A stretch of DNA of 64,000 bases from a bacterium (GTDB taxonomy: Bacteria > Patescibacteriota > CPR2 > UBA1875 > CAIMLA01), in the NCBI GenBank assembly GCA_037129835.1, contig JBAXUE010000003.1, positions 18,793 through 82,792 of the forward strand. Direction: 5' to 3'. Both the position numbers and the translations under genes were made by a program. Each line of letters starts with the position of its first letter. The stretch's first letter is position 1. Of this stretch, positions 24,384-62,139 are shown piece after piece. Below the pieces are notes generated by a model. That model worked only from the letters and a program-made list of their open reading frames with translations, was not told where the DNA came from and ran no database searches.

Positions 24384-24388
24384 TATTT

Positions 24389-25471
24389 ATGGAAATCAAA
24401 AGCTTAAAACTACAAAATTGGCGAAGCCATAACACATTAAACTTTGATTTTAATGAAATTACTATTATTATAGGAGTAAATGCTTCTGGAAAAACAAACT
24501 TTTTAGAAGCTATATATTATTTAGCGACCGCAAAAAGCTTTCGTTCTAAAGATATGAATTTAATTGGCTGGGAACAAAACTTTACAAGGATAGAAGCTGT
24601 TATAAATAAAGGCAATGATAAAGAAGATATTACCGTTGTTTTGGAAAAATTACCCAATTTTAGGAAGACAGTAAAGCTAAAAGAACAAAAAGTTAGTAGT
24701 AGTAAAATACTAGGTCATCTGAATTGTGTTATTTTTACCCCAGAAGAAATAGAACTAATATATACTCTTCCTGATGCAAGAAGAAGATATATAAATCTTA
24801 TACTCAGCCAGACGAACGTCAAGTATGCATATAACCTACTTCATTATAAAAAAGTTGTAGAACAAAGGAACAACCTTTTAAAGAGACTTTCAAAAGGAAC
24901 TGGGAGTATTGGCGAGTTAGAGTTGTGGGACGGCAAGCTTGCTGAATATGCCACACCAATAATAGAGGAAAGGCTAGACTATTTAAGACAAATAAATGAC
25001 AAAATAAGTGATTATTATAAAAAACTATCAAATCAAAAAGCCTCGCTAGAAATCAAATACAAGCCTTCTGTAGAGCCCGACAAAGGCTGGGCGGGGATTA
25101 TTGAAGGATTGCTTAAAAATCGCGAGAGAGACACCGTAGTTGGCTCTACAAGCATAGGACCACACCGTGATGACTTGGGTTTTATAATGAATGGTAGGGA
25201 TATCGTCGATTTTGCATCTAGGGGAGAGTTTAGGACGGTTATGCTCGCCCTAAAACTATCAGAAATAGATTACTTCTATCAAAAAACTGGGGAGAAGCCA
25301 GTTCTTCTGCTTGACGACGTATTTAGTGAGCTAGACGAATGTCGCAGAGACCTACTATCTCAGATATTTCTAAATCAACAAACAATAGTGACCACCACTG
25401 ACCTTGACCATGTTAGTAAAAATATTTTAGAAAAAGCAAAGGTAATTAATCTAGGACAAACTTGTGGATAA
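24389..25471 (+). CDS. recF: DNA replication/repair protein RecF
   Basis: Walker A GVNASGKTNFLEAI, C-terminal LLLDDVFSELD; 360 aa. Confidence 0.85.
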   Translation: MEIKSLKLQNWRSHNTLNFDFNEITIIIGVNASGKTNFLEAIYYLATAKSFRSKDMNLIGWEQNFTRIEAVINKGNDKEDITVVLEKLPNFRKTVKLKEQKVSSSKILGHLNCVIFTPEEIELIYTLPDARRRYINLILSQTNVKYAYNLLHYKKVVEQRNNLLKRLSKGTGSIGELELWDGKLAEYATPIIEERLDYLRQINDKISDYYKKLSNQKASLEIKYKPSVEPDKGWAGIIEGLLKNRERDTVVGSTSIGPHRDDLGFIMNGRDIVDFASRGEFRTVMLALKLSEIDYFYQKTGEKPVLLLDDVFSELDECRRDLLSQIFLNQQTIVTTTDLDHVSKNILEKAKVINLGQTCG

Positions 25472-28999: not shown

Positions 29000-29533
29000 T
29001 CACTCCACTAACCCTAGGTCAAAAACCTTAAAAGCGTTTCCCTCGTCCTTTATTATTGTTATCCAATAATTTTGTTTTAAAGAATTTTTTTCTGTAGAGC
29101 TTGATAGCGTTGTATCAACACTTACTAAAAGGCACATATGCCCACCCTCTTGTTCCTCGCAGTATTCTACCGGCCCAGATGCGGCAGAGCTGTCTGTTAT
29201 AGGAGATACGAGGTTTACGTTTTCATATTCCAAGACAGGGCTGTCTTTTGTAAAATATTTTAGCAACCTTTCTTTGCGGGATTCTGTTGTTTCAGAAATT
29301 GATTGTTGGGAATACTCTTCTATTGCTTTCTGCGCCAATAATGTCTGATTGTTTAGGCTCCATTCCTCCCGCTTGTCCGCTACGCTATTCGTTATTTGCT
29401 TATCGTTTTTCTTATTTGTTGTTACTTTTTCATTTGTGGAATTAATATATAGCACGAAACCTATAAATATTAATATAGTGCCAGCGATAATAGATATAAG
29501 CAGCATTTTATTTTTATTCATCTTAACCTCCAC
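29000..29533 (-). CDS. N-terminally anchored extracellular protein, unknown function
   Basis: 177 aa, N-terminal TM (MLLISIIAGTILIFIGFVLYI), Cys-containing ectodomain. Confidence 0.5.
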   Translation of the reverse strand: MEVKMNKNKMLLISIIAGTILIFIGFVLYINSTNEKVTTNKKNDKQITNSVADKREEWSLNNQTLLAQKAIEEYSQQSISETTESRKERLLKYFTKDSPVLEYENVNLVSPITDSSAASGPVEYCEEQEGGHMCLLVSVDTTLSSSTEKNSLKQNYWITIIKDEGNAFKVFDLGLVE

Positions 29534-30641
29534 TCATTGACCAATGCCAATCCTCTGCAGGATAATTAATAAAACCATATGTTGCACCATTTTTCTTTAA
29601 CCATTTATATACAGGATCTCCCTTGCTTACTAACGATCCTTTATAAGTAAAGTCAATAGCAAGGCCTCTTTCGTGATTAGAGTTTCCTGGTTTGGCTACC
29701 TTACCTCCACAATTTGGTGAGCAACCGGCATATATACCTTGTTGCGTTTCGTAACTGCGAAACCCGCTCCCGCTTAAGGAGACGCCGTCTGCCTTTGCTG
29801 CCGCAATCATTTCCACTGTTCTTTGAGAAATTAGGGCGTTAACCACCCCTACTGCAGTGCCACACTTTCGGAAAGTAAATCCGTTCGTCGGGTGCTTATA
29901 AGTCCCCTTGTCAGAAGAACCTGAGGCATATGCGACACTTGAATAATCCGTTCCATTCTTTAAGCTCCACCCACTTCCCTTACTGATGGTATTTGCTGGC
30001 TTTGCAGTGCCAGAACCACCACCAACACTTGTTGTGGTTGTTGGTGTTGCGGCCAGCTTGCATTTTGGTCTCGAGAAACCGGCTAGATCAGAGCGCCCAT
30101 AAGAAGAGATTCTAACATATGCCCCCGTATATGGAGCCTCTATCATTTTGCCACCACCGATTACCATTCCTACGTGGTGGATAGGACTCCCGAAAAACAC
30201 TAAATCCCCGGGTAGCTCGCTTCCTTTACTGACCTTTGGCTGACCAGAGTATTGGTCACCAGAATAATGCGGCAATGAAACACCTGCCTTTTTATACGCA
30301 TATAGCATGAGCCCCGAGCAATCAAAGCTATTGGGGCCAGCGGCTGCCCAAACGTAAGGCTTCCCTATTTGTTTCTGAGCTTCGGCTACGGCGATGGCGG
30401 CACAGGCATTCGGTGTACCGCTGATAGTCCCCCCACCAGCACCACCACCCGTCCCACCACCAATACCCGGAATCGTTGGCAAGGTTATGGGCTTGATATA
30501 AATAGGACACTCCCAAAAGGAGATAGCCATTGTTTTAATGGGTATTATGAATAACAGACCAAGGCTCACAAACAATAGTCCAAACAAAAGAAATACTTTT
30601 CTTGGAACCAGCCTCTTTATTTTATTGTTATTCCGCGACAT
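29523..30641 (-). CDS. Bifunctional secreted peptidoglycan hydrolase: NlpC/P60 endopeptidase + VanY/M15 D,D-carboxypeptidase-like domain
   Basis: Signal peptide then ISFWECPIYIKP, Gly linker GGGTGGGAGGGT, NlpC/P60 Cys FDCSGLMLYAY and His HHVGMVIGGG; C-terminal SGFRSYETQQ and NSNHERGLAIDF match M15 Zn-peptidase motifs. Confidence 0.6.
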   Translation of the reverse strand: MSRNNNKIKRLVPRKVFLLFGLLFVSLGLLFIIPIKTMAISFWECPIYIKPITLPTIPGIGGGTGGGAGGGTISGTPNACAAIAVAEAQKQIGKPYVWAAAGPNSFDCSGLMLYAYKKAGVSLPHYSGDQYSGQPKVSKGSELPGDLVFFGSPIHHVGMVIGGGKMIEAPYTGAYVRISSYGRSDLAGFSRPKCKLAATPTTTTSVGGGSGTAKPANTISKGSGWSLKNGTDYSSVAYASGSSDKGTYKHPTNGFTFRKCGTAVGVVNALISQRTVEMIAAAKADGVSLSGSGFRSYETQQGIYAGCSPNCGGKVAKPGNSNHERGLAIDFTYKGSLVSKGDPVYKWLKKNGATYGFINYPAEDWHWSMSGG

Positions 30642-32251: not shown

Positions 32252-32776
32252 TTAGCCGGCCTTGCCTCCAGTGTTTGCGGTCATATCAAAATAAACGGTT
32301 TCGAGATTAGTTTTGTTTATTATTGAGTTATTAATATAATCCTTAGCTTCGTTCTTATATTTTTCGAAAGGCAGCTGATAAACAGTAATGTTGCAGATGT
32401 TACCACTTTCCATTTCTGTGCAATCTACGCTGTATTCCGACCCAATATAAGGGAGAAGATAGCTCTTTTTTAACTCATAAGTCTTGTTTCGGGTTTTGTT
32501 GGTCACTTCCAGTGTCGAAATCTCTGTCAGATAATCGTCTTTAGATATTTCGATTTTATATTTACCGGTCTTTAGTTCTATGGTTATCGGTGAGTTTCCG
32601 ACCACGGCACCATCGATTTTTATCTTTGCTGACCCAGGCACTGTGTTTATTGTTATTTTAGGTTTTCCGCTAAGCGCACTTGCAACCAGGGTAAGGACCA
32701 ATATTACTAGAAACAGAATTATAATTGCTATAATTATTTTAGTTTTTGTTTCTAGGTTAGAAATTATGGTGTACAT
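32252..32776 (-). CDS. Membrane-anchored PEGA-domain protein
   Basis: N-terminal TM then TINTVPGSAKIKIDGAVVGNSPITIELKTGKYKIEISKDDYL, a close match to the PEGA pattern. Confidence 0.45.
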   Translation of the reverse strand: MYTIISNLETKTKIIIAIIILFLVILVLTLVASALSGKPKITINTVPGSAKIKIDGAVVGNSPITIELKTGKYKIEISKDDYLTEISTLEVTNKTRNKTYELKKSYLLPYIGSEYSVDCTEMESGNICNITVYQLPFEKYKNEAKDYINNSIINKTNLETVYFDMTANTGGKAG

Positions 32777-34740
32777 GTTATTGCGCTCCCAGCATTGTTA
32801 TTAATTTTCGTTATCCACTGCTTGATCTCATTTATATAGGTTGCGGTATCGTTTTGCGTTGGGGGTGCATATTCCATCATCATGTCCGGTATCGTTTTTA
32901 TTCCCATCCCTTTTATATATACTCTTTTAATATAAACGGAAATATTGTCGCTACCAGTAAGGCTATCGTCCCAGGAATTCCACTTGTAATAAATCGAGCC
33001 GCTTGGGTGGGGCTGGCTACCGCCTGCCTGTCTCCCAAAAGAATTATGGCTGCCCTTACTTGTCCCACTTCCAACGCTTCCAAATTGAGTTTCTTTTCTG
33101 GCTAATGATACTAGTAAAGCAGGATTAATATTTGAGGCCTTGCCACTGGCCAAGAAAAGGGCGCCCTTACCGCTTAACGGCTTCCCGCTACCGATAAATT
33201 TATTAAGGGCCGCAATATATTTTGCTTCATCAGAAATATTTGGAAAAGCAACCGAAATGCAGGCGGTTGTTGAGGCAGTACCACCGGGTGTAGGAGTCGT
33301 GGGCCCGGCCGGCGTAGAGGGTGACGGAGTAGACGGAGTAGAAGGAGCAGGGGCCGCGGTACCCGTCTTGGGGCTATCAAAAACCTTACATGTTCCCGTT
33401 AGTGTTTCGGGCAATGTGCCAGGAACGTATTCCCATTCTTCCCTGTCGGGCGGGTTTGCTGGAAAGGCGGCCTTCATGTAAGTGACAAATTCCTTAATGT
33501 GACCACTATTTTCATCCCCCCACCCTGGAGTTTTGGGGCGAAGAGGTATAAGTTCCGGCCTAGTGAGCCTGAAGAAGGTCGCTGCCCCCACATCGTTGGT
33601 TCCAAGAAAGTTGTTCAATACGTCCATAGCTTTTTCAAAAGGCAGTAGTGGTAATTTCGCGAGACCCTTAAATGCCTCCCATCCAGCTACCAATATGTTT
33701 GTCCTTAGTTGTCTCCAAAATCTTGCGATATCACCCTCATAGTCTTCGAGAATATATTTATCAGTAAACGGCTCATATAGGAACCAAATCTTGCTTGCAA
33801 GATCGTCTATTTTTCGCCACTGTCCGATATAGACAATATTTCTATAAGGATCAATATCTGCAGGGGACATATCGTTTTTATTTGCATCTTGTAGAGCAAT
33901 ACGGATTTTACCAGCACGGCAACGGATGGCCTCTATCGCACATTTATGATAACAAACAGGGTCGATTTCTGGACCTGTCAGAGTTATTACGGTGCATTTA
34001 AGATAGCACTCTGGGATCTGGTCTGCGATGTTAGTTTCCTTGTAGTCTATCGCTGCCAATATCTCTGGCGTTGTTTTGTTATATTTTTCTTTTTCGCCAG
34101 TCGGGCTGCCGTTTTCGTCTACCACTGAATAGGTTTTTCCAAGATCCCAATCTTTGCCGCTAGAATCCTTATAGCCATTCGCTGCCTGTACGTAAGCGTC
34201 ATAGTAGGTAATAAACCGTTGCATGGCTGCAGTCGGGACGTCTGCTTTTGGGCAGCTGTCTCCCCAGCCCCCTGCGATGAATGAAACTGACACAAAAACA
34301 GTCCCTATTACCATGGCTAGGGGCAAGAAAGCACAACTTGCAACGCAAGCAAGAGCGGCCAAAGCTTCCAAAAAGGCCTTTATCAACCGCTTTATCATTC
34401 TTTTCCAGAATTCTTTATCAAAAGCAAGCTTAAGTAGTTCCAGGTCTGCCATCACGTCAGTTCCGACTGATTCAATAGCTCTTGCACCGGCCTGAACACC
34501 CTTGACTACCTTTTTTGCATCTTCAACACCCTCTTTGATCTTTTGGCCAGTCTTTGAGTTCCCGGCAGCATCAATGGCCCCTTCTTTGCCCTTTTTTACA
34601 GCATATCCAATAGGGTCCTTATTAATTTCGCCTATTTTGTCTTTTACACCACCACCGATTTTATCAGCACCAGCTTTAACACCACTGCCAACCTTGTCAG
34701 CACCGGCTTTTGCCAGTTTTCCTAAGTTCTCCAGGCCCAC
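32764..34740 (-). CDS. PrgK-like large membrane-anchored extracellular protein: N-terminal GADK repeats, TM, Cys-rich ectodomain, Pro/Thr linker, C-terminal putative muramidase-like domain
   Basis: 658 aa; repeats GADKVGSGVKAGADKIGGGVKDKIG; TM at about aa 130-165; linker TAAPAPSTPSTPSPSTPAGPTTPTPGG; C-terminal NINPALLVSLARKETQFG loosely resembles a glucosaminidase/lysozyme core; directly downstream of VirB4. Confidence 0.35.
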   Translation of the reverse strand: MGLENLGKLAKAGADKVGSGVKAGADKIGGGVKDKIGEINKDPIGYAVKKGKEGAIDAAGNSKTGQKIKEGVEDAKKVVKGVQAGARAIESVGTDVMADLELLKLAFDKEFWKRMIKRLIKAFLEALAALACVASCAFLPLAMVIGTVFVSVSFIAGGWGDSCPKADVPTAAMQRFITYYDAYVQAANGYKDSSGKDWDLGKTYSVVDENGSPTGEKEKYNKTTPEILAAIDYKETNIADQIPECYLKCTVITLTGPEIDPVCYHKCAIEAIRCRAGKIRIALQDANKNDMSPADIDPYRNIVYIGQWRKIDDLASKIWFLYEPFTDKYILEDYEGDIARFWRQLRTNILVAGWEAFKGLAKLPLLPFEKAMDVLNNFLGTNDVGAATFFRLTRPELIPLRPKTPGWGDENSGHIKEFVTYMKAAFPANPPDREEWEYVPGTLPETLTGTCKVFDSPKTGTAAPAPSTPSTPSPSTPAGPTTPTPGGTASTTACISVAFPNISDEAKYIAALNKFIGSGKPLSGKGALFLASGKASNINPALLVSLARKETQFGSVGSGTSKGSHNSFGRQAGGSQPHPSGSIYYKWNSWDDSLTGSDNISVYIKRVYIKGMGIKTIPDMMMEYAPPTQNDTATYINEIKQWITKINNNAGSAITCTP

Positions 34741-36516
34741 CTATTCCGCCTCTTCTTTTTTCAGCGCCTTCTCTGGGTTTGTGTTCGCCAACAGGTTTTC
34801 TTGGTAACTTGGGATTATTTGCATAGCAACATGCCGAAGCCCAGCAATAAACAATCCCTCACCAACACCAGTAGTTACTAAGTAGTCTCTCTCTGTTTCT
34901 GTTAGTTTCCACGCCTCTTTAACATAATCAACTTGCGCCGGATGCTGCCGGAGGAGTATCGCCATAGAAGAGTTTTGTGCGATTGCGCGACCGTATTCGG
35001 AGCCAAAAAAGTCGGCTGCATCTTGAGCAATACAGGTAAGGCCAAGATAATATTTACGTCCTCTTTTTGCTAGCGAGAAAAGGAATTGTGCCGATTCAGG
35101 ATATTTCATAAGTACCCAGGCTTCATCAACAAACAAGAGGCGCTTTTTCTTTTCGCTTTTGATTTTATTCCAGATAAAGTTAAGTATTGAATACATTGCT
35201 ATCGGTCTCAGCTCATCCTCAAGGTCCCTGATAGAGAAAACCACCAAACGATTTTGCATACTTACATTGGATTGCTGATTCATAAGACCCGAGTATGTAC
35301 CATTTGTGTATTTATCTAGTCGAACCGCGATACTTTCACCGCCGTTGATGCTCTCCAAAACTTTTTGAAGATCATGAAATGTAGGTGGTTGTAATCCGTG
35401 AGTTTTTGGGTCTTCGGTAATACCCTTGGATGCGTATGCCTCGATGATTGCTTTGTCTAAAACATTGCTTTCTTCTGGAGAAATATTTCCAACCATGACT
35501 CGCACTAAACCAGCTAGCATTATTGTATTGCTACGAATGGACTCTATTGCCTCTTTTTCGTCATTTATCAAGGGAAGATCAAACGGATTTACGTGCTGTT
35601 CTGAATTAATGTTTATACTCAAGTAGCTGCCACCAAAGGCCAAAGAGAGCTCTTCATATTCATTTTCCGGATCAATTACAAGAATATCGGTGCCAAGAAT
35701 AAGAGACCTTATTAGCTCTAGCTTTACAGTATAGCTTTTCCCGGCTCCAGACATAGCGATAACAACAGAATTATAATTTGGTAAACTAAAGCGATCAAAA
35801 ATAATTAAACTATTGTTTATTTTGTTAATACCGTAAAACACCCCTGTATCTTGAGATAATGTGTCGGACAAGAATGGGAAAAAGGTGGAGATGGCCTCGG
35901 TGTCTAGGTTTCTTCCTATGGATATTTCCTCTCTATCAAGCGGTAGGGTCGAGTTGAACCCTTCTTTGCCTTGATAGAGTGTCCTTTTTGAATACACCAA
36001 GAGCTCATTAAGCATTTTTTCTACTCGATCAACACTGTCATTTAGTGATTCCATCGTTTCTGCGTATATGGTGAGATAGAATCCTACTTTAAATATTTTT
36101 GTCTGACCCGTAGCGATTTTTTCACGTAGATTCTCTACGTCCGCATATTTTGCCTCAAGGCCAGGATCCCTAACGAGACCTCTCTGGGCATTCATATCTA
36201 GAGTCGACTCTAACTGAGTTGACTTTCCTCTTAGTCTTTGGGCAATAGCTGCGTTGTCTTGAGGGTAGATGTGGATAGAAACATCAAGGGGTAGGTCGGT
36301 ATTAATGGTTTGTGAGAGCCATCCCGGGAAGAGCATCCTTGGGTAGTCGTATACAAATAGAGTTGTAAGATATACCTGGCCAAGCTTCAGGTGATCTACT
36401 GCTATTTCCAAAGCAGAAGGAGCCAGCAAGTCTCTTACACTTGTAAGCCCTTGTTGGAATACCTGCATTGCTCGAGTCTGTCTTAGTTCGTCTGCGCTTT
36501 TATTCTCTTGAAACAT
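34741..36516 (-). CDS. virB4: Type IV secretion ATPase VirB4/TrbE/PrgJ family (C-terminal two-thirds)
   Basis: Walker A VIAMSGAGKSYT, DPENEY, Walker B RLLFVDEAWVLM; 591 aa; Walker A at about aa 245, so the usual ~200-aa N-terminal domain is missing from this ORF. Confidence 0.7.
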   Translation of the reverse strand: MFQENKSADELRQTRAMQVFQQGLTSVRDLLAPSALEIAVDHLKLGQVYLTTLFVYDYPRMLFPGWLSQTINTDLPLDVSIHIYPQDNAAIAQRLRGKSTQLESTLDMNAQRGLVRDPGLEAKYADVENLREKIATGQTKIFKVGFYLTIYAETMESLNDSVDRVEKMLNELLVYSKRTLYQGKEGFNSTLPLDREEISIGRNLDTEAISTFFPFLSDTLSQDTGVFYGINKINNSLIIFDRFSLPNYNSVVIAMSGAGKSYTVKLELIRSLILGTDILVIDPENEYEELSLAFGGSYLSININSEQHVNPFDLPLINDEKEAIESIRSNTIMLAGLVRVMVGNISPEESNVLDKAIIEAYASKGITEDPKTHGLQPPTFHDLQKVLESINGGESIAVRLDKYTNGTYSGLMNQQSNVSMQNRLVVFSIRDLEDELRPIAMYSILNFIWNKIKSEKKKRLLFVDEAWVLMKYPESAQFLFSLAKRGRKYYLGLTCIAQDAADFFGSEYGRAIAQNSSMAILLRQHPAQVDYVKEAWKLTETERDYLVTTGVGEGLFIAGLRHVAMQIIPSYQENLLANTNPEKALKKEEAE

Positions 36517-44217: not shown

Positions 44218-45888
44218 TTATTCTTTGATTACTCGCAGAACTTCGCCAATGGTTGTTACGCCCGAAAGAGACTTGAGCAGGCCATCTTGTTCCATGGTGA
44301 CCATGCCAGATTCAATCGCTTTTTCGCGAACGCTAAATATATTAGCACCTTCAGAAATTAAAATTTGAATATCGCGTTTCATCTCAAGGATTTCAAAAAT
44401 ACCGATGCGTCCTTTGAAACCTAGGTTTTTACATTTATCACAGCCAGCACCGATAGTAAATTTATATGGTGCGATGGGCTTTAACTCTTCTGGCAAGGAG
44501 CTTACTATCCTGGTTATTTCGCCATCTTCAAAAGGTGTTGGTATATATTCTTTTCGACAATCTGGGCAAATAATACGGACTAAACGTTGAGCGATAATGA
44601 GATTCGTTGAGGCGGCAAATAAAGAGGGTTCGTTAACAAGATCTATGTATCTTGAGATAGCCGTGACAGCATCGTTAGCATGAAGTGTAGAAACCATTAG
44701 GTGTCCCGTTAACGCAGCCTGGATAGCAACACTGGCTGTATTGCCATCTCGAATTTCACCAACCATTATTATGTCTGGATCTTCACGAAGTACAGCCTTT
44801 AGTCTCTCAAAAAATGATTCGCCCTCATTTATTTGAGACTGAACAGCACCAACCAGGGTATATTCTACGGGGTCTTCTAGGGTAATAATTTTTACACTTT
44901 CGGTGTTGAGTCTGTTTAATATGGCATAAATCGTGGTTGTTTTGCCAGAACCTGTTGGTCCCACAATAAGGATCATCCCATGTGGTCTATTAAGTGCGTT
45001 TTCGAGCTTTGGTTGATCGTAGGCACCTAAGCCCAAGTCGCTTATATCTAGAGTGGTAGTTTGGGCACTAAATAAACGGATTACTATATCATCGCCGTAC
45101 ATTGTAGGCATGGTCTCGATACGAACCCCGAGCTCAGTATCATTGTAATTTAGAGCAAACCTACCGCCTTGAGGAATTTTTGCATTTAGTTTTAATTCTG
45201 ACTGAAGTTCTACCTGGGATAATACATATTTGTATTGTTTCGCATTTAGGGTGGCGACGTGGTGTAGCGTACCGTCAAGCCTGTATCTAATATAGGTGTC
45301 ACCCTCTCTCGGCTCAACATGGATATCAGAAGCCTTGGACTCAAATGCCATAAAAAGGATAACCTTTAAAAGCTCTTGGACTGGTGTGGCCTGAAGCTTT
45401 GCCTGTAGCTCATCGAATGATTTGATGGTGGCAATATTGGTTAGATCTACAATATTGTCATCTTTGTCGAAGGGAACCTTCTTCTCAATATTCTTATATC
45501 TAGATAAAAATTCTACAAAAGAAGGTTCAGAAATAAGAACGATATTGATTTGAATTAATAGATATTGCTTCTTAAGTTCCTTAAAAAATTCTTCAAAATC
45601 CTTTTCGGCGTCTGTAATGGCGACCGTTAAAATGTTTTCATTATAATCAATAGGGAACGCTGAATATTTAATAACTTCTTCTCGAGAAAAAAAGCTGAGA
45701 ACATCGTTTTGTATATATGCGCCCTTGAGATATACGTATCCGAATCCAATGTCCGCCGCTTTGGCTTTTACGGCTTCTTCTAGGTCTGTTCTATATAAGC
45801 TACCAATCGTCTTGGTAAGTGAATTGTCGTTATTGTTCAAAACCCCTCCAGATTTAAAGAAGCCATAAGGGCTACTCGTTACTACCAT
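44218..45888 (-). CDS. pilB: Type IV pilus assembly ATPase PilB (GspE family)
   Basis: Walker A LIVGPTGSGKTTT, Asp/His boxes, tetracysteine CPDC...CDKC, N-terminal GSPII_E-N-like domain; 556 aa. Confidence 0.75.
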   Translation of the reverse strand: MVVTSSPYGFFKSGGVLNNNDNSLTKTIGSLYRTDLEEAVKAKAADIGFGYVYLKGAYIQNDVLSFFSREEVIKYSAFPIDYNENILTVAITDAEKDFEEFFKELKKQYLLIQINIVLISEPSFVEFLSRYKNIEKKVPFDKDDNIVDLTNIATIKSFDELQAKLQATPVQELLKVILFMAFESKASDIHVEPREGDTYIRYRLDGTLHHVATLNAKQYKYVLSQVELQSELKLNAKIPQGGRFALNYNDTELGVRIETMPTMYGDDIVIRLFSAQTTTLDISDLGLGAYDQPKLENALNRPHGMILIVGPTGSGKTTTIYAILNRLNTESVKIITLEDPVEYTLVGAVQSQINEGESFFERLKAVLREDPDIIMVGEIRDGNTASVAIQAALTGHLMVSTLHANDAVTAISRYIDLVNEPSLFAASTNLIIAQRLVRIICPDCRKEYIPTPFEDGEITRIVSSLPEELKPIAPYKFTIGAGCDKCKNLGFKGRIGIFEILEMKRDIQILISEGANIFSVREKAIESGMVTMEQDGLLKSLSGVTTIGEVLRVIKE

Positions 45889-46014: not shown

Positions 46015-46104
46015 TGGCGGAGAGGGTGGGATTTGAACCCACGGTGACCTTGCGACCACAACGGTGTTCGAGACCGTCCTATTCAACCGCTCTAGCACCT
46101 CTCC
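46015..46104 (-). tRNA. tRNA-Ser (anticodon CGA), type II with long variable arm
   Basis: Reverse complement GGAGAGGTGCTAGAGCGGTTGAATAGG-ACGGT-CTCGAAC-ACCGT-TGTGGTCGCAAGGTCACCG-TGGGTTCAAATCCCA-CCTCTCC-G-CCA folds as a cloverleaf; anticodon loop CUCGAAC; encoded CCA. Confidence 0.8.
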
Positions 46105-46110
46105 ATATAT

Positions 46111-46674
46111 TTAATTAACGATATATAGGTACACCTCATTTATTTTTTTTGCAGGAACCAACTCGGTAATTTCAAATGCATTAGAAACAATGCGCGTTCC
46201 GGGTTTCAGCTGTTTGTATATGGTCTGATGAAACCTGTTCATTGTGTGCGGGAAAAGATAGCAAAAAACGACATCTGCGTCAGATATATTTTTTTTAAAA
46301 AAGTTGCCCCACAATAATTCTCCCCGAGAAATACCAATCATTCTTCTAAGATAGTAATACAAAACAAGTGGAATTGAAATTTCAAAACCCGTAGCCTTTG
46401 CCCCTAGCATAGTAGCAGCATCGACTATCTTGCCATCTCCAGCACCAAGGTCATACACTCTTTCGCCCTTTTTAATATTACTAATTTCCAGCATTGTTTT
46501 GACCCTAGATTTGTTTGAAGGTACGAACGGTGCCCAATAAAATGTATAAAAGCTAGAGATAAAAAAGAGCATTCCAAATGCGGGTATTATTAATGGCCAA
46601 TATACGTTGAAGGTTTGTGCCAAATAGATACCTATCGCCATTAGTATTAGTTCAAATATTATTTCGGGAACCAT
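46111..46674 (-). CDS. Membrane-anchored class I SAM-dependent methyltransferase-like protein
   Basis: Two N-terminal TM helices then motif I VYDLGAGDGKIVDAA; 187 aa. Confidence 0.4.
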   Translation of the reverse strand: MVPEIIFELILMAIGIYLAQTFNVYWPLIIPAFGMLFFISSFYTFYWAPFVPSNKSRVKTMLEISNIKKGERVYDLGAGDGKIVDAATMLGAKATGFEISIPLVLYYYLRRMIGISRGELLWGNFFKKNISDADVVFCYLFPHTMNRFHQTIYKQLKPGTRIVSNAFEITELVPAKKINEVYLYIVN

Positions 46675-46697
46675 TTTTTCTCCTAGATATGATCTAT

Positions 46698-46774
46698 TGG
46701 TGCGCCTGGGAGGATTCGAACCTCCGACCTTACGGACCGCAACCGTACGCTCTAATCCCCTGAGCTACAGGCGC
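46698..46774 (-). tRNA. tRNA-Arg (anticodon read as GCG)
   Basis: Reverse complement GCGCCTG-TA-GCTC-AGGGGATTA-GAGC-G-TACGG-TTGCGGT-CCGTA-AGGTC-GGAGG-TTCGAAT-CCTCC-CAGGCGC-A-CCA; G37 fits a CGN-decoding tRNA; anticodon read by eye, +/-1 nt. Confidence 0.6.
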
Positions 46775-51916: not shown

Positions 51917-52006
51917 TGGCGGAAGGGGTGGGATTCGAACCCACGATACCATTGCTGGTATGACGGTTTTCAAGACCGTTCGATTCAACCGCTCTCGCAC
52001 CCTTCC
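51917..52006 (-). tRNA. tRNA-Ser (anticodon TGA), type II
   Basis: Reverse complement GGAAGGGTGCGAGAGCGGTTGAATCGA-ACGGT-CTTGAAA-ACCGT-CATACCAGCAATGGTATC-GTGGGTTCGAATCCCAC-CCCTTCC-G-CCA; anticodon loop CUUGAAA. Confidence 0.8.
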
Positions 52007-52233
52007 GTGCGGCAGGATAACCTGCTCTAAACCTCTTAATATACGATGCCGGGCACCTCCTTTGATGGACCCCTATAACACTCCGAAACCGGACCATCTG
52101 GTCCCATTCCTCTGCCATAACAATTGTATCCAAAAAAATAAAAATAAATAATGACCCCGGCTGTTACGGCTGCAATTACAGCTAGCAAAGATAAGCACAT
52201 TTTCCTTGAAATCATTGAGTTGCTTCCTTATAT

Positions 52234-52326
52234 TGGCGGAGAGGGAGGGATTCGAACCCTCGCGCCAGGTTACCCCGACCTACAGGTTTAGCAAACCCGC
52301 CCCTTCAGCCTCTTGGGTACCTCTCC
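52234..52326 (-). tRNA. tRNA-Ser (anticodon GCT), type II
   Basis: Reverse complement GGAGAGGTACCCAAGAGGCTGAAGGGG-CGGGT-TTGCTAA-ACCTG-TAGGTCGGGGTAACCTGGCGC-GAGGGTTCGAATCCCTC-CCTCTCC-G-CCA; anticodon GCU, A37. Confidence 0.8.
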
Positions 52327-53438: not shown

Positions 53439-55553
53439 TTACTTAGGCCACAAGCTAATTATTAGAGGTTTTTCTTCTTTTAGCTCTTCCCAAATAGTTT
53501 CTGTTAAAAATGGCATAAATGGATGGAGCATTCTTAGCGAATTCCTTAGTACATAGTCGAGCGTGTGTTGCGCTGCAACTTTGCTTTTGTCGTTATCTTG
53601 AATTCTGGTTTTTGCGTTTTCTATATATATGTCACAGAAATCATGCCAAAAAAAGGAATATACCGATTCTGCTGCAATACTTAGTTTGTAGCCCTCAATT
53701 GCTTTCGTTACGACTTTTAAGGTAGATTCGTATTTAATTAAGATATCTTTATCAGCTTGGGTTAATTCTTTTTCAATTGTTTCACGTGAAACAATTTTAT
53801 AATCTTCTAGGTTCATTAAGACAAAACGTGCTGCATTCCAAACTTTATTTGCGAAATGCTTCTGTCCCTTGATGTTTTCCTCAGAAACAGCTACGTCGTT
53901 CTCAATTAAGGCGCCCCAAACCAAGCTCATTCGGAGTGCGTCGGAGCCATATTTATCCACCATCTCTACTGGATCAATCACGTTACCTTTGGATTTACTA
54001 ATCTTTAAGCCTTGTTTATCACGAACAAGTCCATGTAAAACCACATTTTCGAAAGGAGTTTCACCTGTTTCGTAAATTCCGAGCATCATCATGCGGATTA
54101 CCCAGAATGGTAATATGTCGGCAGCGGTTTCCATTACAGTAGTAGGGTAAAAATAGTCGAAATCTTCTTTGCTGTTTACTTCTAGGGCAGCGAAAGGCCA
54201 TTGGCCAGATGAAAACCAAGTATCGAAGGTATCTTTATCCTGGGTGAGCTTGGACGAACCACAATGAGTACAGGTAGGAGGTACTTCCCCTGCAGTGATT
54301 GTCCACTTATTACAACCAGCACAATGCCAAGCAGGAATTCTTATTCCCCATACTATCTGCCGGCTGATGTTCCAGTCACGTAGATTTGTAAGCCAGTGCA
54401 TCGCAGTCTTTTCGAATTTTCTGGCGTTAAAGGTCGTTTGTTTGTTTTCTATCGCAGAGAGTGCAGATTCGGCTAGTTTTTCTACCTTAATAAACCACTG
54501 ATCTTCTAATAAGGGTTCTATAACGGTATTACAACGATAGCACTTACCAACGGAATGGTGCAAATCTTCTGTTTTTGTTAATAATTTGGCTTCCTCGAGC
54601 CTTTTTATTGTTAGCTCTCTAGCTGCTTTCGGCCGCAGTCCCACGTATTCTTCTGGAACATTCTGCATTTTTCCTTCTTTGCTGATGATAGAAATAAGCG
54701 GAAGGTTGTGTTTCTGTCCTATTTCATAATCTGTAGCATCGTGGGCAGGAGTAACCTTGAGCGCGCCCGTACCGAACCCTATTTCTACAAGCTCATCAGC
54801 TATTATTGGCACTTCCCTTCCTATGAGTGGAATAGTAGCGATCTTGCCAACTAGGCTTCCCAGTTTTTTGTCTTTTGGGTTCACCGCTACTGCGACATCG
54901 GCAAATATGGTTTCTGGTCTAGTGGTTGCAATAGTCACGGTACCATAATCTAGGTAGTATAGTTTGTCGTCTTGTTCTTTGTAATCAACCTCAAGTTGAG
55001 AAAAGGCAGTTCCACAGCGGACACAGTAGTTCACTACTCTCTCGCCTCGATATATTAAGTCGTCCTTGAAAAGCTTATTAAACGTTCGATAGACTACTTT
55101 GACAATCGCTGGATCTAGGGTGTATTTACCTCTGGACCAGTCACAAGAGGCACCGAGTGCTCTAAGTTGATTCTCCATATTATTACGGTTATCCACAACA
55201 TAATCCCATATCATTTGGTATAGTGTATCGCGATCATAGTCGAACCTGCTTTTGCCTTCTTTGGCCAATTTTTTCTCAAATACGTATTGCGTTTCTATGC
55301 CTGCATGATCTGCCCCGGGGACCCATAAAGTAGGGCGTCCCTTCATTCTCCAGTAGCGAGTGAGGATATCTTCTACGAATACGAAGCGAGCATGACCGAT
55401 GTGCAGATTGTCATTCGCATTTGGTGGAGGCATTATTATAGTAAAGGGCTTTTCACCTTTTTTGATTATTGGCTTAAAGTAGCCATTATCTTCCCAAAAT
55501 TTGTATATTCTTTTTTCGTTTTCGGCCGGGCTGTATGCTTTTGCCATTTCCAT
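53439..55553 (-). CDS. valS: Valyl-tRNA synthetase (compact form)
   Basis: HIGH as PPPNANDNLHIGHA, KMSKS as KISKSKGNVIDP, ISRQIVWGIRIPAW motif typical of ValRS; 704 aa; preceded by a T-box-like leader. Confidence 0.65.
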   Translation of the reverse strand: MEMAKAYSPAENEKRIYKFWEDNGYFKPIIKKGEKPFTIIMPPPNANDNLHIGHARFVFVEDILTRYWRMKGRPTLWVPGADHAGIETQYVFEKKLAKEGKSRFDYDRDTLYQMIWDYVVDNRNNMENQLRALGASCDWSRGKYTLDPAIVKVVYRTFNKLFKDDLIYRGERVVNYCVRCGTAFSQLEVDYKEQDDKLYYLDYGTVTIATTRPETIFADVAVAVNPKDKKLGSLVGKIATIPLIGREVPIIADELVEIGFGTGALKVTPAHDATDYEIGQKHNLPLISIISKEGKMQNVPEEYVGLRPKAARELTIKRLEEAKLLTKTEDLHHSVGKCYRCNTVIEPLLEDQWFIKVEKLAESALSAIENKQTTFNARKFEKTAMHWLTNLRDWNISRQIVWGIRIPAWHCAGCNKWTITAGEVPPTCTHCGSSKLTQDKDTFDTWFSSGQWPFAALEVNSKEDFDYFYPTTVMETAADILPFWVIRMMMLGIYETGETPFENVVLHGLVRDKQGLKISKSKGNVIDPVEMVDKYGSDALRMSLVWGALIENDVAVSEENIKGQKHFANKVWNAARFVLMNLEDYKIVSRETIEKELTQADKDILIKYESTLKVVTKAIEGYKLSIAAESVYSFFWHDFCDIYIENAKTRIQDNDKSKVAAQHTLDYVLRNSLRMLHPFMPFLTETIWEELKEEKPLIISLWPK

Positions 55554-55730
55554 ATTTGTTTTCCTTATATAAAAACCACACCTAGCTCAGGAGCCCTCTC
55601 GGGCGGTACCATCCTGATTCCTTAGTGTGGGATACTTACTCTTCTGCTATTACGGGCTTACCCGTCGGGTTCTAATTGCTAAATGCTTTCTTCCCGAGAC
55701 TCACTAGTGACTAGCTAGCTCGATGTCTGT
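55554..55730 (-). ncRNA. T-box riboswitch-like leader of valS
   Basis: Minus-strand RNA contains AAUCAGGAUGGUACCGCCCGAGAGGG (15/18 match to T-box consensus AAUUAGGGUGGUACCGCG) about 40-60 nt upstream of the valS ATG, then GGUUUUUAU; a leader of about 177 nt from the predicted promoter; GUCA candidate Val specifier in CUAGUCACUAG. Confidence 0.5.
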
Positions 55731-55736
55731 GACAGA

Positions 55737-55765
55737 ATTTTAGAATATTTTATCGTTTTTGTCAA
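55737..55765 (-). promoter_or_regulatory. Sigma70-like promoter for T-box/valS (TTGACA-N17-TAAAAT on minus strand)
   Basis: Plus-strand tgtcaa (55760-55765) and atttta (55737-55742) are 17 nt apart. Confidence 0.4.
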
Positions 55766-55774
55766 TTAACACTA

Positions 55775-55803
55775 TTGACAATAATGCAATATTATGTTAG
55801 TAT
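55775..55803 (+). promoter_or_regulatory. Divergent sigma70-like promoter for the small GC-rich gene (TTGACA-N17-TAGTAT)
   Basis: ttgaca at 55775-55780, 17-nt spacer, tagtat at 55798-55803; SD GGAGG 6 nt before the ATG at 55889. Confidence 0.4.
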
Positions 55804-55888
55804 ATCCTAGTTCCGTAAGGAACAGCACCTTGCAGTAGTAGTTGTAGTCGCTAGCCATAAAGGTTAGCCCACACCACAGGAGGCAGTA

Positions 55889-56164
55889 ATGTACACACAG
55901 GTTTTTGCTACCGTTTGGCCGCTCCTCGTTTTGACTGCTGGAATAGCAGTTGTGGCACCAAAAGTGCCGCGTTGGACATGGATGGTCATAAATGTTGTGT
56001 CGGGGATTCTTCTCGGCGCTTTCGGCGGACTCGTTTCGTTTACAGCAATCGCCACAGGCGGAAACCCAAATGTCGGCCCAGCTGCACTCCTCTCGTTCGC
56101 GGGAGGACTTGCATGGGCAGCGGTATGGCTCCTGTATTACTGGGAGCACCGCTCGAAGGCATAA
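55889..56164 (+). CDS. Small (91 aa) hydrophobic 3-TM membrane protein in a GC-rich islet
   Basis: MYTQVFATVWPLLVLTAGIAVVAPKVPRWTWMVINVVSGILLGAFGGLVSFTAIATGGNPNVGPAALLSFAGGLAWAAVWLLYYWEHRSKA; own promoter, SD and terminator; local G+C clearly above the surrounding DNA. Confidence 0.5.
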   Translation: MYTQVFATVWPLLVLTAGIAVVAPKVPRWTWMVINVVSGILLGAFGGLVSFTAIATGGNPNVGPAALLSFAGGLAWAAVWLLYYWEHRSKA

Positions 56165-56183
56165 CTACTATGCACGATGCAAA

Positions 56184-56214
56184 GCCTCAGAACCACACGG
56201 TTCTGAGGCTTTTG
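56184..56214 (+). terminator. Rho-independent terminator (gcctcagaacc-acac-ggttctgaggc + TTTTG)
   Basis: 11-bp perfect stem, 4-nt loop, T-tract; between the small gene and the convergent tsaD stop. Confidence 0.55.
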
Positions 56215-56217
56215 CCT

Positions 56218-57288
56218 TTAGATAAGTTTTAAATTCGGATCTGGGACTAAGGATTTCGCATCACAATAATCATCTATTAAGGAATGTTGATATGCGGCCG
56301 CCGCTATCATGGCAGCGTTATCGGTACAGCACTTAATATCTGGTATAAATATATTTACTTTATAATCACCGAGCTCTTCGATAACTTGTTTCCTTAGATT
56401 CGTGTTCGCAGCAACGCCCCCAGACAACAAAACGGTTTTTGGTTTATATTCTTTGACTGCACGAGCAAGGTTTCTCGACATTATTTTATTTGCGGTAAAC
56501 TCAAATGATGCGGAGATGTCTTCTTTCTGCTTTATTGTTAGCGATTCGTTGTCGGCTTTGACTCTTTTAATAAGGTTAAGAACGGCTGTTTTGAGGCCAG
56601 AATACGAGAAGTCAAGACTCTCTTTTGGATTAACCAGAAATCCTTCTTCGTTTCTTTTTGGCGCCGAAGTCAAGTCAGTAATGGGTAGCCTGTAAGCTTC
56701 TTTGTTGCCCAAAAGAGCCATTTTTGATATTTCTGGTCCACCCGGATATCCGAGATCGAGCATTTTTGCTACTTTATCATAAGCTTCACCGGCGGCGTCA
56801 TCTTGGGTTTCTCCGATAATTTTGTAATTAAGGTGCTTCGCCATATAAATCACGTTGGTGTGGCCACCTGATGCCGTTAGGCAAACCAAGGGGAAAGTAG
56901 GCACTTCTGGCAAATTCTTCTTCAACCAGTTTGCATAGATGTGCCCTTCTGTGTGATGAACTGCGATGAGGGGCTTGTTATATATATAGGCCAAAGTTTT
57001 CGCAGTATTTACCCCGACTATTAGTGAACCGATAAGGCCAGGACCTTCAGTAACTGCGATTGCATCAATCTCGTCCCAAGTTACTTCGGCGACGCGAAAA
57101 GCTTCTTCCAAAACGGGAATAATGTGCTTGATATGCTCCCTAGCAGCCACTTCTGGAACAACACCGCCATAAGCACTATGTTCGAGCTGTGTTGCCACAA
57201 TTGAGCTTAGGATAATACTACCATCTGTAACGATCGCCACCGAGGTGTCGTCACAGCTTGTTTCTATTGCTAAAATATTCATAAGCAT
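56218..57288 (-). CDS. tsaD: tRNA N6-adenosine threonylcarbamoyltransferase TsaD (Kae1/Gcp family)
   Basis: MLMNILAIETSCDDTSVAIV..., HHTEGHIYANWL, GVAANTNLR motifs; 356 aa. Confidence 0.85.
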   Translation of the reverse strand: MLMNILAIETSCDDTSVAIVTDGSIILSSIVATQLEHSAYGGVVPEVAAREHIKHIIPVLEEAFRVAEVTWDEIDAIAVTEGPGLIGSLIVGVNTAKTLAYIYNKPLIAVHHTEGHIYANWLKKNLPEVPTFPLVCLTASGGHTNVIYMAKHLNYKIIGETQDDAAGEAYDKVAKMLDLGYPGGPEISKMALLGNKEAYRLPITDLTSAPKRNEEGFLVNPKESLDFSYSGLKTAVLNLIKRVKADNESLTIKQKEDISASFEFTANKIMSRNLARAVKEYKPKTVLLSGGVAANTNLRKQVIEELGDYKVNIFIPDIKCCTDNAAMIAAAAYQHSLIDDYCDAKSLVPDPNLKLI

Positions 57289-61486: not shown

Positions 61487-61864
61487 ATGTCTGGAATTAG
61501 GATAGGTAAGTGGATTGGCTGGCATCTGTTTGTCAAAAGCAATAACCTCTCCGATGAGGGTGTTGTGACAGAATGTCTCGGCCAGGAAGGTATTATTACC
61601 TTCGAAACAAATAACGGTGAATTTAGCTTCTATTCCGATTCGCTAAAAAAAGGCGGACGCGGATACGAAGTATCCGGGGACGCACCCAGGAAGGCGTATT
61701 TAGTTCCTGTGGGGGTGACTCTGTCAGAAAGACTTGTTCTTGCACTATTCACGATTGTCCTTTTGATGATCTACGCTGTAGCTATCTGGTATGGAATAAA
61801 AGGTATTCAAGCCTTTTTCCACTCAGATATCCTGCGAATCATCGCTGATATCGGACCACTCTAG
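61487..61864 (+). CDS. Hypothetical protein with C-terminal TM helix, in second GC-rich islet
   Basis: 125 aa; SD GGGGGGAG; C-terminal LVLALFTIVLLMIYAVAIWYGIKGI; G+C noticeably higher than flanks. Confidence 0.4.
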   Translation: MSGIRIGKWIGWHLFVKSNNLSDEGVVTECLGQEGIITFETNNGEFSFYSDSLKKGGRGYEVSGDAPRKAYLVPVGVTLSERLVLALFTIVLLMIYAVAIWYGIKGIQAFFHSDILRIIADIGPL

Positions 61865-61882
61865 ACGAGGGAGGTGAGGCGT

Positions 61883-62065
61883 ATGTCTAAGCACGTAGGG
61901 GAGATGACGGAGGTCCAATTTCGGATTCATCTTCTTGATCACTGCAAATCGCAAACTCCCATCGAAGTTCAGGAGTTCGAGGAGATCGTGCAGGAAGCTG
62001 TACGGCGAGGGTACGGTGAAGATATGGCCAGACAAGGATGGCTAGTTCGCAATAAGAAAACATAA
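61883..62065 (+). CDS. Small (60 aa) charged protein, second gene of the GC-rich islet
   Basis: MSKHVGEMTEVQFRIHLLDHCKSQTPIEVQEFEEIVQEAVRRGYGEDMARQGWLVRNKKT; GAGGGAGG SD; 18-nt gap after the previous gene. Confidence 0.35.
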   Translation: MSKHVGEMTEVQFRIHLLDHCKSQTPIEVQEFEEIVQEAVRRGYGEDMARQGWLVRNKKT

Positions 62066-62115
62066 GCGGCCGGGGACCGCAATGAAATACGTTTCGTTGC
62101 TGGGCCACCGGCCGC
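62066..62115. terminator. GC-rich nested hairpin between the islet and the convergent trpS
   Basis: gcggccgg...ccggccgc outer 8-bp stem with an inner gcaatgaaa/tttcgttgc stem. Confidence 0.4.
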
Positions 62116-62139
62116 GATTCGTTTAGGAGATATGGTTAG

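Follow-up and report, generated by a model that had tools for sequence, protein, structure and literature searches.

In the hbs mRNA of Bacillus subtilis, a 14-bp interaction of the 5′ untranslated region (UTR) with the 3′ UTR limits cleavage by RNase Y in a structured leader (Braun, Durand and Condon 2017; PMC5737220). This message is about 400 nucleotides (nt) long, encodes a protein of about 90 amino acids (aa), and owes part of its stability to a strong Shine-Dalgarno (SD) sequence (PMC5737220). A second group comprises the type I toxin mRNAs hok and aapA1, which are very stable and are closed by a 5′-3′ long-distance interaction (PMC5416894); according to PMC12390103, type I systems have been recorded in Proteobacteria, Firmicutes and Tenericutes alone. 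Here we describe a small-gene cassette at positions 55775 to 56219 of a 64-kb stretch of contig JBAXUE010000003.1 (hereafter the window, meaning the whole stretch that was analysed), where it lies between valS and tsaD. mRNAs closed by pairing between their 5′ and 3′ UTRs are already known, and the cassette would be a further variant of them, with a predicted structure. The explanation that we consider best, at a probability of roughly 0.6, is that this is a self-contained monocistronic unit encoding a lineage-restricted membrane protein with three helices, and that its mRNA is GC-rich, highly folded and closed end to end. In silico, raised G+C at third codon positions (GC3) goes together with a predicted mRNA of unusual stability whose ends are paired, and the message appears to have been selected for all three properties. 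The elements on which this reading draws are listed here in order.

55775..55803, + strand: sigma-70-type promoter, TTGACA (55775-55780), 17-nt spacer and TG-extended TAGTAT (55798-55803); promoter scan, 10/12
55810..55823, + strand: H1, 5′-end hairpin GUUCC-GUAA-GGAAC, beginning at the predicted transcription start; from the fold, in all eight orthologues
55825..55849, + strand: 5′ arm of the predicted long-range helix, GCACCUUGCAGUAGUAGUUGUAGUC; minimum free energy (MFE) fold
55850..55868, + strand: H2, predicted 7-bp 5′-UTR hairpin GCUAGCC-AUAAA-GGUUAGC, between the 5′ arm and the SD; RNAalifold
55879..55883, + strand: SD sequence GGAGG; from the sequence
55889..56164, + strand: coding sequence (CDS) of the predicted three-helix membrane protein, 91 aa; open reading frame (ORF) call
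56158..56180, + strand: 3′ arm of the predicted long-range helix, GGCAUAACUACUAUGCACGAUGC, which holds the UAA stop codon (56162-56164); MFE fold
56181..56219, + strand: intrinsic terminator with a 14-bp perfect stem, AAAGCCUCAGAACC/GGUUCUGAGGCUUU, loop ACAC and tail UUGCCUUU; fold and inverted-repeat search

The original prediction had described a 91-aa three-helix ORF with its own promoter, a GGAGG SD and a hairpin terminator between valS and tsaD, and all of these are found where it had placed them. In the promoter, TTGACA-N17-TAGTAT, the −35 box is perfect, the spacer is 17 nt long, and the −10 box, with TG in front, matches the consensus at four of six positions. A promoter of the form TTGACA-N17-TAnnAT with TGn is present in 7/7 orthologous loci that extend that far, and GGAG(G) is kept in all orthologues; in the window the ATG lies 5 nt past the SD. 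The stem arms of the terminator are 56181-56194 and 56199-56212; over six orthologues, covariation is seen at four of its pairs, with 94% of cells paired. A simple terminator scan missed it because the T run is interrupted. The same terminator serves, head to head, the 3′ end of the convergent tsaD (stop codon 56218-56220), and the span from promoter to terminator, about 410 nt, is monocistronic.

All results on RNA structure were obtained computationally, for the window on the predicted transcript 55810-56218. The MFE of this transcript is −173.7 kcal/mol, against −135 ± 5.6 kcal/mol for dinucleotide shuffles (z −6.9, and −5.7 in an independent run), and the z-scores of the eight orthologous transcripts are −5.7, −5.8, −5.6, −4.4, −5.8, −6.1, −3.1 and −4.8. 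The CDS taken alone has a z-score of −3.09, where 36 random coding windows from the same genome have a mean of −0.46 with a standard deviation of 0.98 and a minimum of −2.6. When 1272 windows of 410 nt covering both strands of the 64 kb were folded, the small-gene region was the most stable of all (−171 kcal/mol against a mean of −93 ± 15), and after regression on GC it was still the most extreme (z −4.7 to −4.8), ahead of the tRNA cluster. Permuting synonymous codons while holding protein, codon usage and GC3 constant weakened the fold in 8/8 orthologues, with z-scores from −0.1 to −4.1 and a mean of −2.1.

Within this fold, the feature that would close the message is a long-range helix, which in the window comprises 21 bp between 55825-55849 and 56158-56180 and includes the UAA. 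It is predicted in every single-sequence MFE fold, with 9-26 pairs joining nt about 15-40 of the 5′ UTR to a region at or just past the stop codon, and the equivalent of the 3′ arm lies immediately upstream of the terminator in all orthologues, as well as in an unrelated gene that occupies the slot at one further locus (L015). The two arms of the window form a duplex of −23.6 kcal/mol, which none of 500 shuffles (0/500) equalled; arm duplex energies are below those of shuffled 3′ arms in 8/8 orthologues (p from 0 to 0.036) and beat nearly all CDS-internal windows in 5/8. Cognate arms average −22.7 kcal/mol, compared with −14.7 kcal/mol for arms combined with those of other lineages. In an alignment of six sequences the outer ten pairs of the helix are 85.5% paired, and sliding the 3′ partners by 1-3 columns leaves 29-40% of cells paired across the whole structure. 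Closure is also predicted where the sequence is unrelated to that of the window: locus L007 has the arms CGUACAAAAC/GUUUUGUACG, L009 has AAUAGC-CCUAUCGU/ACGAUAGG-GCUAUU with its own UAG included, and L015 has GCCUUGAAA/UUUCAAGGC. As to the hairpins of the 5′ UTR, the stems of H1 are different in L009 (UCAUCCC/GGGGUGA) and L007 (UCAUUC/GAAUGA), and 6/7 pairs of H2 have compensatory changes on both sides across the eight orthologues (RNAalifold, alignment A4). Codon-aware RNAalifold of whole transcripts, with the stop codon left out, did not recover the long-range helix, because its arms are not positionally alignable across lineages, and the CDS-internal helices in that analysis were not conserved in position.

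Composition is the other half of the argument. The G+C of roughly 55%, in surroundings of about 40%, that had been estimated by eye is borne out on measurement, the CDS having 0.547 and the 64-kb window 0.403; with a rank in the top 0.39% of 276-nt windows, it forms the second-highest GC peak in the 64 kb. The protein is likewise as Gly/Ala/Trp-rich and hydrophobic as had been described, with 14 Ala, 10 Gly and 6 Trp among its 91 residues and only six that are charged or His. Back-translation with the codon usage of 32 long window genes gives a G+C of 0.501 ± 0.017, compared with an observed 0.553 (P about 0.002), such that roughly two-thirds of the GC excess over 0.40 is accounted for by amino-acid composition (rich in Gly, Ala, Pro and Trp) and the rest by GC3. 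Codon choice is odd as well: 7/11 Leu codons are CTC (12% in the host) and 4/4 Ser codons are TCG (9% in the host). The mean GC3 of window genes is 0.37, and no other genuine ORF of the window, among the non-overlapping ORFs of at least 50 aa that were examined, reaches 0.48. In all orthologues the CDS has a G+C of 0.53-0.58 and a GC3 of 0.51-0.67, while the rest of each locus has a G+C of 0.39-0.44 and flanking genes a GC3 of 0.27-0.42; in L009, for example, GC3 is 0.65 in the small gene and 0.31-0.34 in its neighbours. Because high GC and GC3 are kept despite a synonymous divergence (dS) between family members that runs from 0.37 to saturation (>1), they look like a maintained trait and not like a neutral donor signature that is fading, and their maintenance in all orthologues argues for selection at the nucleotide level and against recent horizontal transfer.

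It might be supposed instead that this is an ordinary small membrane-protein gene, in which GC is a by-product of the amino acids and the fold a by-product of GC. The amino-acid composition alone predicts a GC of 0.50, and several other regions of the window reach 0.54-0.565, by way of first and second codon positions (GC1 and GC2). Such a gene would not be expected to have GC3 raised in every orthologue, up to 0.65-0.67 where neighbours have 0.27-0.34, nor a GC-corrected stability residual that is the most extreme in the window. Moreover, the shuffles preserve dinucleotides and the permutations preserve codon usage, so both controls for the fold take composition into account, and the complementarity of the two arms is specific and recurs with different sequences. 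We therefore regard this alternative as quite unlikely.

Several observations weigh against the preferred reading of a selected, folded and closed message, and they should be stated together. The support for the RNA structure is computational throughout. Column-wise covariation is weak in the long-range helix, as the six alignable sequences have just a single pair in which both partners change, and for this reason the covariation argument rests mainly on the divergent loci L007, L009 and L015. The codon-permutation signal is itself weak in two of these, L007 (z −0.1) and L009 (z −1.5). The GC3 of the window gene, at 0.527 against an expected 0.416, deviates by a z-score of only 2.3, on a scale where reference genes have a standard deviation of 1.9. 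Finally, other small genes in the relatives, thioredoxin included, are GC3-rich too, and alternative causes of raised GC3 remain.

Those other genes deserve a closer look. At 13663-14818 of L011 stand three adjacent small GC3-rich genes, namely hyp136 (0.61), hyp104 (0.66) and thioredoxin (0.67, with a CDS fold z-score of −4.2), and at 13050-13511 of L009 stands hyp153, with a GC3 of 0.64 and a fold z-score of −3.0; the remaining genes of the two loci have a GC3 of 0.27-0.46, rpsO among them with 0.41. Small mRNAs stabilised by their structure may form a general class in these genomes, and the small-gene cassette would be its clearest example. If such a class exists, the case for a toxin (discussed below) becomes weaker and the case for mRNA stability stronger. 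An outlier of the opposite kind is found in the window at 23286-25471 (+), where two genes just downstream of dnaA (21525-23036) have GC3 values of 0.21 and 0.285, with z-scores of −5.9 and −3.1 given their protein sequences. Its dnaA places the window near the replication origin.

Strong folds also occur elsewhere in the window. At 61487-62117, after a gene of the DHH family, there are two small ORFs on the forward strand, one of 125 aa with a C-terminal hydrophobic segment and one of about 60 aa (ATG at 61883), followed by a long GC-rich hairpin at about 62056-62117; the local GC peak is 0.533. Windows from 61487-62110 rank near the top of the 64 kb in stability (−142 kcal/mol), the 125-aa CDS has a fold z-score of −4.3, and no Rfam family was found at gathering score over 61487-62117. 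The third most stable 410-nt fold lies at 29991-30600 (−), with −150 kcal/mol and a GC of 0.52, inside an ORF at 29523-30641 whose GC2 is high (0.52).

Since so much of the evidence concerns RNA, it is fair to ask whether the ORF matters at all. The closest relative of the window gene is a twin (L001) on a 617-nt metagenome contig that encodes a 98%-identical protein. The two differ at 23/276 nt, 21/23 of the differences fall at third codon positions, and the codon changes comprise 20 synonymous and 2 non-synonymous ones. Nei-Gojobori estimates of dN/dS are 0.027 for the window and L001, 0.056 for L005 and L021, and 0.186 for L006 and L011. A second candidate gene was considered on the opposite strand, namely

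55772..56149, − strand: 125-aa antisense ORF across the small gene, a by-product of GC-rich, stop-poor sequence

and was rejected, as the codon-aligned frame holds 0-4 stops per orthologue and substitutions track the sense frame. Third-position bias, low dN/dS and the misfit of the antisense ORF together indicate that the sense ORF is a protein-coding gene under purifying selection. These data bear directly on the notion of a dual-function or primarily non-coding structured RNA, in which the ORF would be secondary. The region does give the most stable fold in the 64 kb, above windows of the tRNA cluster, the UTR helices covary, and permuting synonymous codons weakens the fold, all of which a structured RNA would be expected to show. 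Set against this are the clear coding signature, with dN/dS of 0.03-0.19, the conservation of protein length, of three helices and of Gly, Pro and Trp positions, the lack of positional conservation in CDS-internal helices in the codon-aware alignment, and the failure of Rfam to return an RNA family over the cassette either at gathering scores or at E values up to 10, the nearest match being a sub-threshold T-box. A mainly RNA-based function is accordingly an unlikely account.

As to the protein itself, its membrane character and number of helices are predicted. AlphaFold2, run on an alignment of seven sequences, places helices at 2-22, 28-55 and 63-90 (predicted local distance difference test score 77.6). 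Loop 1 carries basic residues, the C-terminal tail, EHRSKA, is charged, and the positive-inside rule, the sole basis here, is consistent with an N-terminus outside and a C-terminus inside. Across the family, protein length, the three helices and the positions of Gly, Pro and Trp are kept, and the family alignment has invariant glycines in helices 2 and 3 (G39, G46, G57, G58, G63 and G73) along with an invariant Pro-Lys/Arg turn after helix 1. By these features the protein looks like a tightly packing or oligomerising membrane subunit.

The family has 90-98 residues and about seven sequence clusters. A word-indexed protein search returned a single cluster, the 98% twin, whereas exhaustive phmmer against 1.84 billion representative proteins returned four representatives and a profile search six clusters; L021 was added through a DNA pattern from the valS T-box. 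No significant family match was found for the 91-aa protein in Pfam, NCBIfam, PHROGs, PADLOC, sequences of the PDB or, by Foldseek, structures of the PDB, the best being phrog_14607 (a PHROG holin/anti-holin) at a non-significant E of 0.13, and searches of viral contigs, phage genomes and plasmids turned up no relatives. Judged by TsaD (67%), the nearest reference genome is a metagenome-assembled genome of an uncultured Candidatus Saccharibacteria, and its locus ends before the site. By these searches the family is a previously undescribed orphan ORF (ORFan) confined to some Saccharibacteria.

Its distribution speaks to the claim that the gene was acquired horizontally. Orthologues that are 37-98% identical occupy the slot valS(−)/gene(+)/tsaD(−) in at least five deep Saccharibacteria lineages. 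The most distant members, on contigs of 308 kb and 29 kb, have tblastn identities of 37-38% with the window protein (34% and 38% in the family alignment), where ValRS is about 76-77% identical by tblastn, and so the small protein evolves fast. Gene order in the window and in L011 is TPR(+)/valS(−)/small gene(+)/tsaD(−)/FemAB(+)/Mur ligase(+)/DHH(+), and L009 has the same order up to the Mur ligase gene; on the shorter contigs L005, L006, L007, L008, L010 and L021 the upstream neighbour is valS, the downstream neighbour is tsaD, or both neighbours are seen. In distance trees of TsaD and Mur ligase, the gene-bearing window, L009 and L011 form three deep branches, with a TsaD identity of about 66% to one another. 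Among loci with a flank, L001 is the sole exception, the 180 nt past its conserved terminator being AT-rich and unlike tsaD. This segment, L001 431-617, has no similarity to tsaD or to the other sequences compared; a rearrangement, an insertion or an assembly chimera is possible, and the contig is too short to interpret. The gene is missing from L014, L017, L018 and L020, where tsaD runs straight into the valS leader across a gap of about 205 nt (L014 5139-5345; L017 3399-3611; L018 1661-1873; L020 3686-3922). At these four loci tsaD and valS are co-directional with no terminator between them, and the valS T-box promoter has its −35 TTGACA overlapping the stop codon of tsaD (...AAA TTG ACA TAA). 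Together with L015, which like them was retrieved with the valS T-box pattern, they form one tight clade, 72-90% identical, in the TsaD and Mur ligase distance trees. Because gene-bearing lineages are deep and gene-less loci belong to one tight clade, the simplest reading is that an old gene was lost in that clade.

The contrary view, that a recent foreign islet came from a donor of higher GC whose signature has not yet been ameliorated, has its points. Besides the composition and the CTC and TCG codons already given, there is one related clade in which tsaD abuts the valS promoter with no gene between, the slot of L015 holds a different gene, and the downstream flank of the near-identical L001 copy is not tsaD; in addition, ValRS is 80-83% identical among gene-bearing lineages and 42-63% identical to gene-less ones, while TsaD and Mur ligase are about equally distant. 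A recent arrival is nevertheless hard to reconcile with the same slot and orientation in lineages this deep, with high GC and GC3 in every orthologue at a dS by which a neutral donor signature should have decayed, and with a pattern of absence that favours loss. There are no flanking direct repeats at the cassette beyond short chance matches, no mobility genes, and no relatives outside the group among the 1.84 billion representative proteins or the phage, plasmid and viral sets. Recent acquisition, as the original prediction had it, thus does not hold up and is in our view very unlikely; what the sequences indicate is vertical inheritance in a fixed slot, between tsaD and a T-box-controlled valS, in one Saccharibacteria group. 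The other part of that proposal fares better, as this is an autonomous small gene of atypical composition and is accessory in so far as one related clade has no copy. Presence at the site is largely conserved among relatives, but codon usage is not normal, so the gene is not simply an ordinary core gene either.

A separate case is presented by L015, a member of the otherwise gene-less clade, in which the gap between tsaD and valS is 867 nt long and holds a three-helix ORFan:

4877-5266 of L015, − strand: 129-aa ORFan, with a promoter at about 5345-5373

Its protein has no homology to the small-gene family (hhalign probability 0.7%) and is a singleton in a database of 5.8 billion proteins. Yet the gene has the same type of TG-extended promoter, with −35 boxes back to back with those of valS, and a similar terminator tail, and its transcript is predicted to have a 5′ hairpin and a 5′/3′ closing helix of at least 9 bp next to the UAG, at a fold z-score of −2.8. 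By this comparison, the tsaD-valS slot is a conserved site for small membrane-protein genes that evolve fast or can be replaced.

The neighbours of the cassette are well-known genes. On the left, divergent to the small gene, is valS (Pfam class I aminoacyl-tRNA synthetase, ValRS type, E 7e-118), and on the right, convergent with it, is tsaD (Pfam TsaD, E 3e-86). Two further elements belong to the divergent side:

55737..55765, − strand: divergent valS promoter TTGACA-N17-TAAAAT; promoter scan, 11/12
55586..55732, − strand: T-box leader of valS, outside the cassette but sharing the divergent promoter region; Rfam, E 5.6e-5 at 31.1 bits, sub-threshold (gathering score 93)

The −35 boxes of valS and the small gene stand back to back, 9 bp apart, and the two promoters build a 22-nt imperfect inverted repeat (55745-55766 with 55774-55795), a layout that is kept in orthologous loci. 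The T-box is without most of Stem I, with 3 nt in place of model positions 24-94. The antiterminator/terminator core of this T-box, GGAGCCC...GGGCGGTACCATCCT, is conserved at the valS loci of Saccharibacteria, and a search with this pattern pulled nine metagenome loci, of which 8/9 adjoin valS. The valS gene itself (53439-55553) separates gene-bearing from gene-less lineages by the ValRS identities given above, and TsaD and Mur ligase are about equally distant (63-73%) within and between the two groups, as compared over L009, L011, L014, L015, L017 and L020. From these sequences, valS may have a history distinct from that of its neighbours, with a possible replacement in one group.

How might a cassette of this kind work? 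A near-consensus promoter, a strong SD, a 5′ hairpin, a 5′/3′ helix and a terminator together make up the design expected of a long-lived, end-protected message. In the preferred reading, the fold would shield both ends of the mRNA and its leader from ribonucleases and may also moderate translation, and a small protein, packing or oligomerising in the membrane by way of its glycine-rich helices, would thereby be made from a long-lived message. A ribosome at the stop codon would have to melt the closing helix, and since the 3′ arm contains or abuts that codon, translation and mRNA conformation are probably coupled. None of the ten long window ORFs that were scanned was identified as an RNase gene.

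A broader proposal follows the same lines and is put forward tentatively, as it has perhaps one chance in several of being right: small membrane-protein genes in Saccharibacteria (Patescibacteria, or Candidate Phyla Radiation, CPR) could be under a previously undescribed form of control, in which, within a closed-loop mRNA, a helix between the 5′ UTR and the stop codon or 3′ UTR, strengthened by GC selection at synonymous sites throughout the CDS, acts as a gate on mRNA decay or on the loading of ribosomes, and every ribosome that terminates opens it again. On this proposal the frame of promoter, closure and terminator would be kept even where the CDS has been replaced by an unrelated three-helix ORFan, as in L015. 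In its most striking version, if true, the encoded proteins would be membrane toxins, and this would be the first type I-like toxin system in CPR, one without a cis-antisense RNA.

That the cassette is a module like those of type I toxin-antitoxin systems, or like a holin, has to be considered in its own right. The protein would then be a membrane-damaging three-helix toxin and the closed mRNA a translationally throttled store, as in hok and aapA1, checked by an undetected antisense or trans-acting RNA or by read-through from tsaD across the shared terminator. Much about the message fits, including the predicted 5′-3′ long-distance interaction, the very high predicted stability and the 5′ hairpin, which recur in aapA1 and hok (PMC5416894). 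The product is a small hydrophobic protein, rich in glycine and charged in its C-terminal tail, and its fast evolution (37-38% identity, against about 76-77% for ValRS), its patchiness, seen in the presence/absence polymorphism, and its replacement in L015 by a non-homologous three-helix ORFan are all expected of genes in conflict. The terminator is indeed common to the convergent tsaD, and the SD is mostly paired by prediction, with an unpaired probability of 0.04-0.40. On the other hand, the partners of the SD are not conserved, and when a hok-like release of the SD on loss of the 3′ arm was looked for, deletion of the arm gave no consistent change and did not systematically free the SD. Local opening of the translation start region would take 8.4 kcal/mol, a marginal increase over the 6.3 kcal/mol of 29 control genes (p 0.06), and a strong promoter combined with a strong SD is more typical of a protein that is made abundantly. 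A search for a conserved antisense promoter on the minus strand, inside the transcript or next to it, found none in the window, L009 and L011. At 91 aa and three helices the product is well outside the usual type I format of fewer than 60 aa and one helix, and there are no significant holin, defence or phage matches, nor lysis genes among the neighbours that were checked. For a holin in particular, predicted topology would be the one feature in favour. In sum, a toxin is a possible but doubtful identity; the selfish or toxin idea of the original prediction finds an echo in an mRNA design that recalls type I toxin mRNAs, and a holin, toxin or entry-exclusion function is possible.

The locus is of interest beyond its own function in several respects. 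A GC spike with atypical codons, which would usually be called an acquired islet, is here a conserved trait of a vertically inherited gene, a caution for compositional screens. If the fold proves real, the cassette provides a compact and comparative case of a bacterial mRNA's 5′ end pairing with its 3′ end in an uncultivated lineage with reduced genomes, and this case is helped by natural replacements, in that arm sequences differ across lineages and the CDS differs in L015. The cassette also defines a previously undescribed family of three-helix membrane proteins, and a class of small mRNAs stabilised by structure is suggested by the tsaD-valS slot together with the other small genes that are GC3-rich.

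Two other features of the window may be recorded. At 32764-36516 (−) and 44218-45888 (−) there are genes resembling those of type IV secretion or conjugation (a P-loop ATPase of the TraG/VirB4 type and a protein with a glucosaminidase domain) and a T2SSE/pilus ATPase. At 46015-46774 and 51917-52326 (−) there are three tRNA-Ser genes (CGA, TGA, GCT) and one tRNA-Arg gene (GCG), and a pair of the tRNA-Ser genes, separated by about 230 nt, stands just upstream of the TPR gene.

It remains to compare the cassette with the systems that it most resembles. Class I phage holins, lambda S105 for example, have three helices with the N-terminus outside and the C-terminus inside. The cassette protein is like them in size, in its three predicted hydrophobic helices, in the basic residues of loop 1 and in its charged C-terminal tail. 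Unlike them, it has no significant similarity to them by sequence or profile (the best PHROG match being the one at E 0.13) and no viral or phage relatives, and the cassette is stably inherited between valS and tsaD, with no endolysin or phage genes among the neighbours checked.

With hok/Sok of plasmid R1 and aapA1/IsoA1 of Helicobacter pylori the cassette shares a stable, compact mRNA with paired ends, in its own case as predicted in silico, a small hydrophobic membrane protein, and a fixed chromosomal locus between housekeeping genes with a patchy distribution. The toxins of those systems, however, have 30-52 aa and one helix, compared with 91 aa and three helices here, and they are held in check by a cis-antisense RNA with its own promoter, of which no conserved counterpart was found at the cassette in the window, L009 and L011. 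In addition, the long-distance interaction in those mRNAs hides the SD until 3′ processing releases it, whereas the predicted pairing of the SD of the cassette has no consistent response to removal of the 3′ arm.

The hbs mRNA provides the analogy that we favour, and we infer from it that the cassette may work by a similar logic, that of a protected message. Both are short monocistronic mRNAs of about 400 nt whose product has about 90 aa, both combine a strong SD with a 5′ UTR that is highly structured, and in both the 5′ and 3′ UTRs of one mRNA pair, the pairing in the cassette being predicted. The product of hbs is an abundant DNA-binding protein and that of the cassette a membrane protein, and the roles of RNase Y and RNase J1 in hbs have been shown by experiment, whereas the fold of the cassette is predicted from sequence alone. 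What sets the cassette apart, beyond this, is that its closing helix includes or abuts the stop codon, and that its CDS is GC3-enriched and folded over its whole length in an otherwise AT-rich genome.

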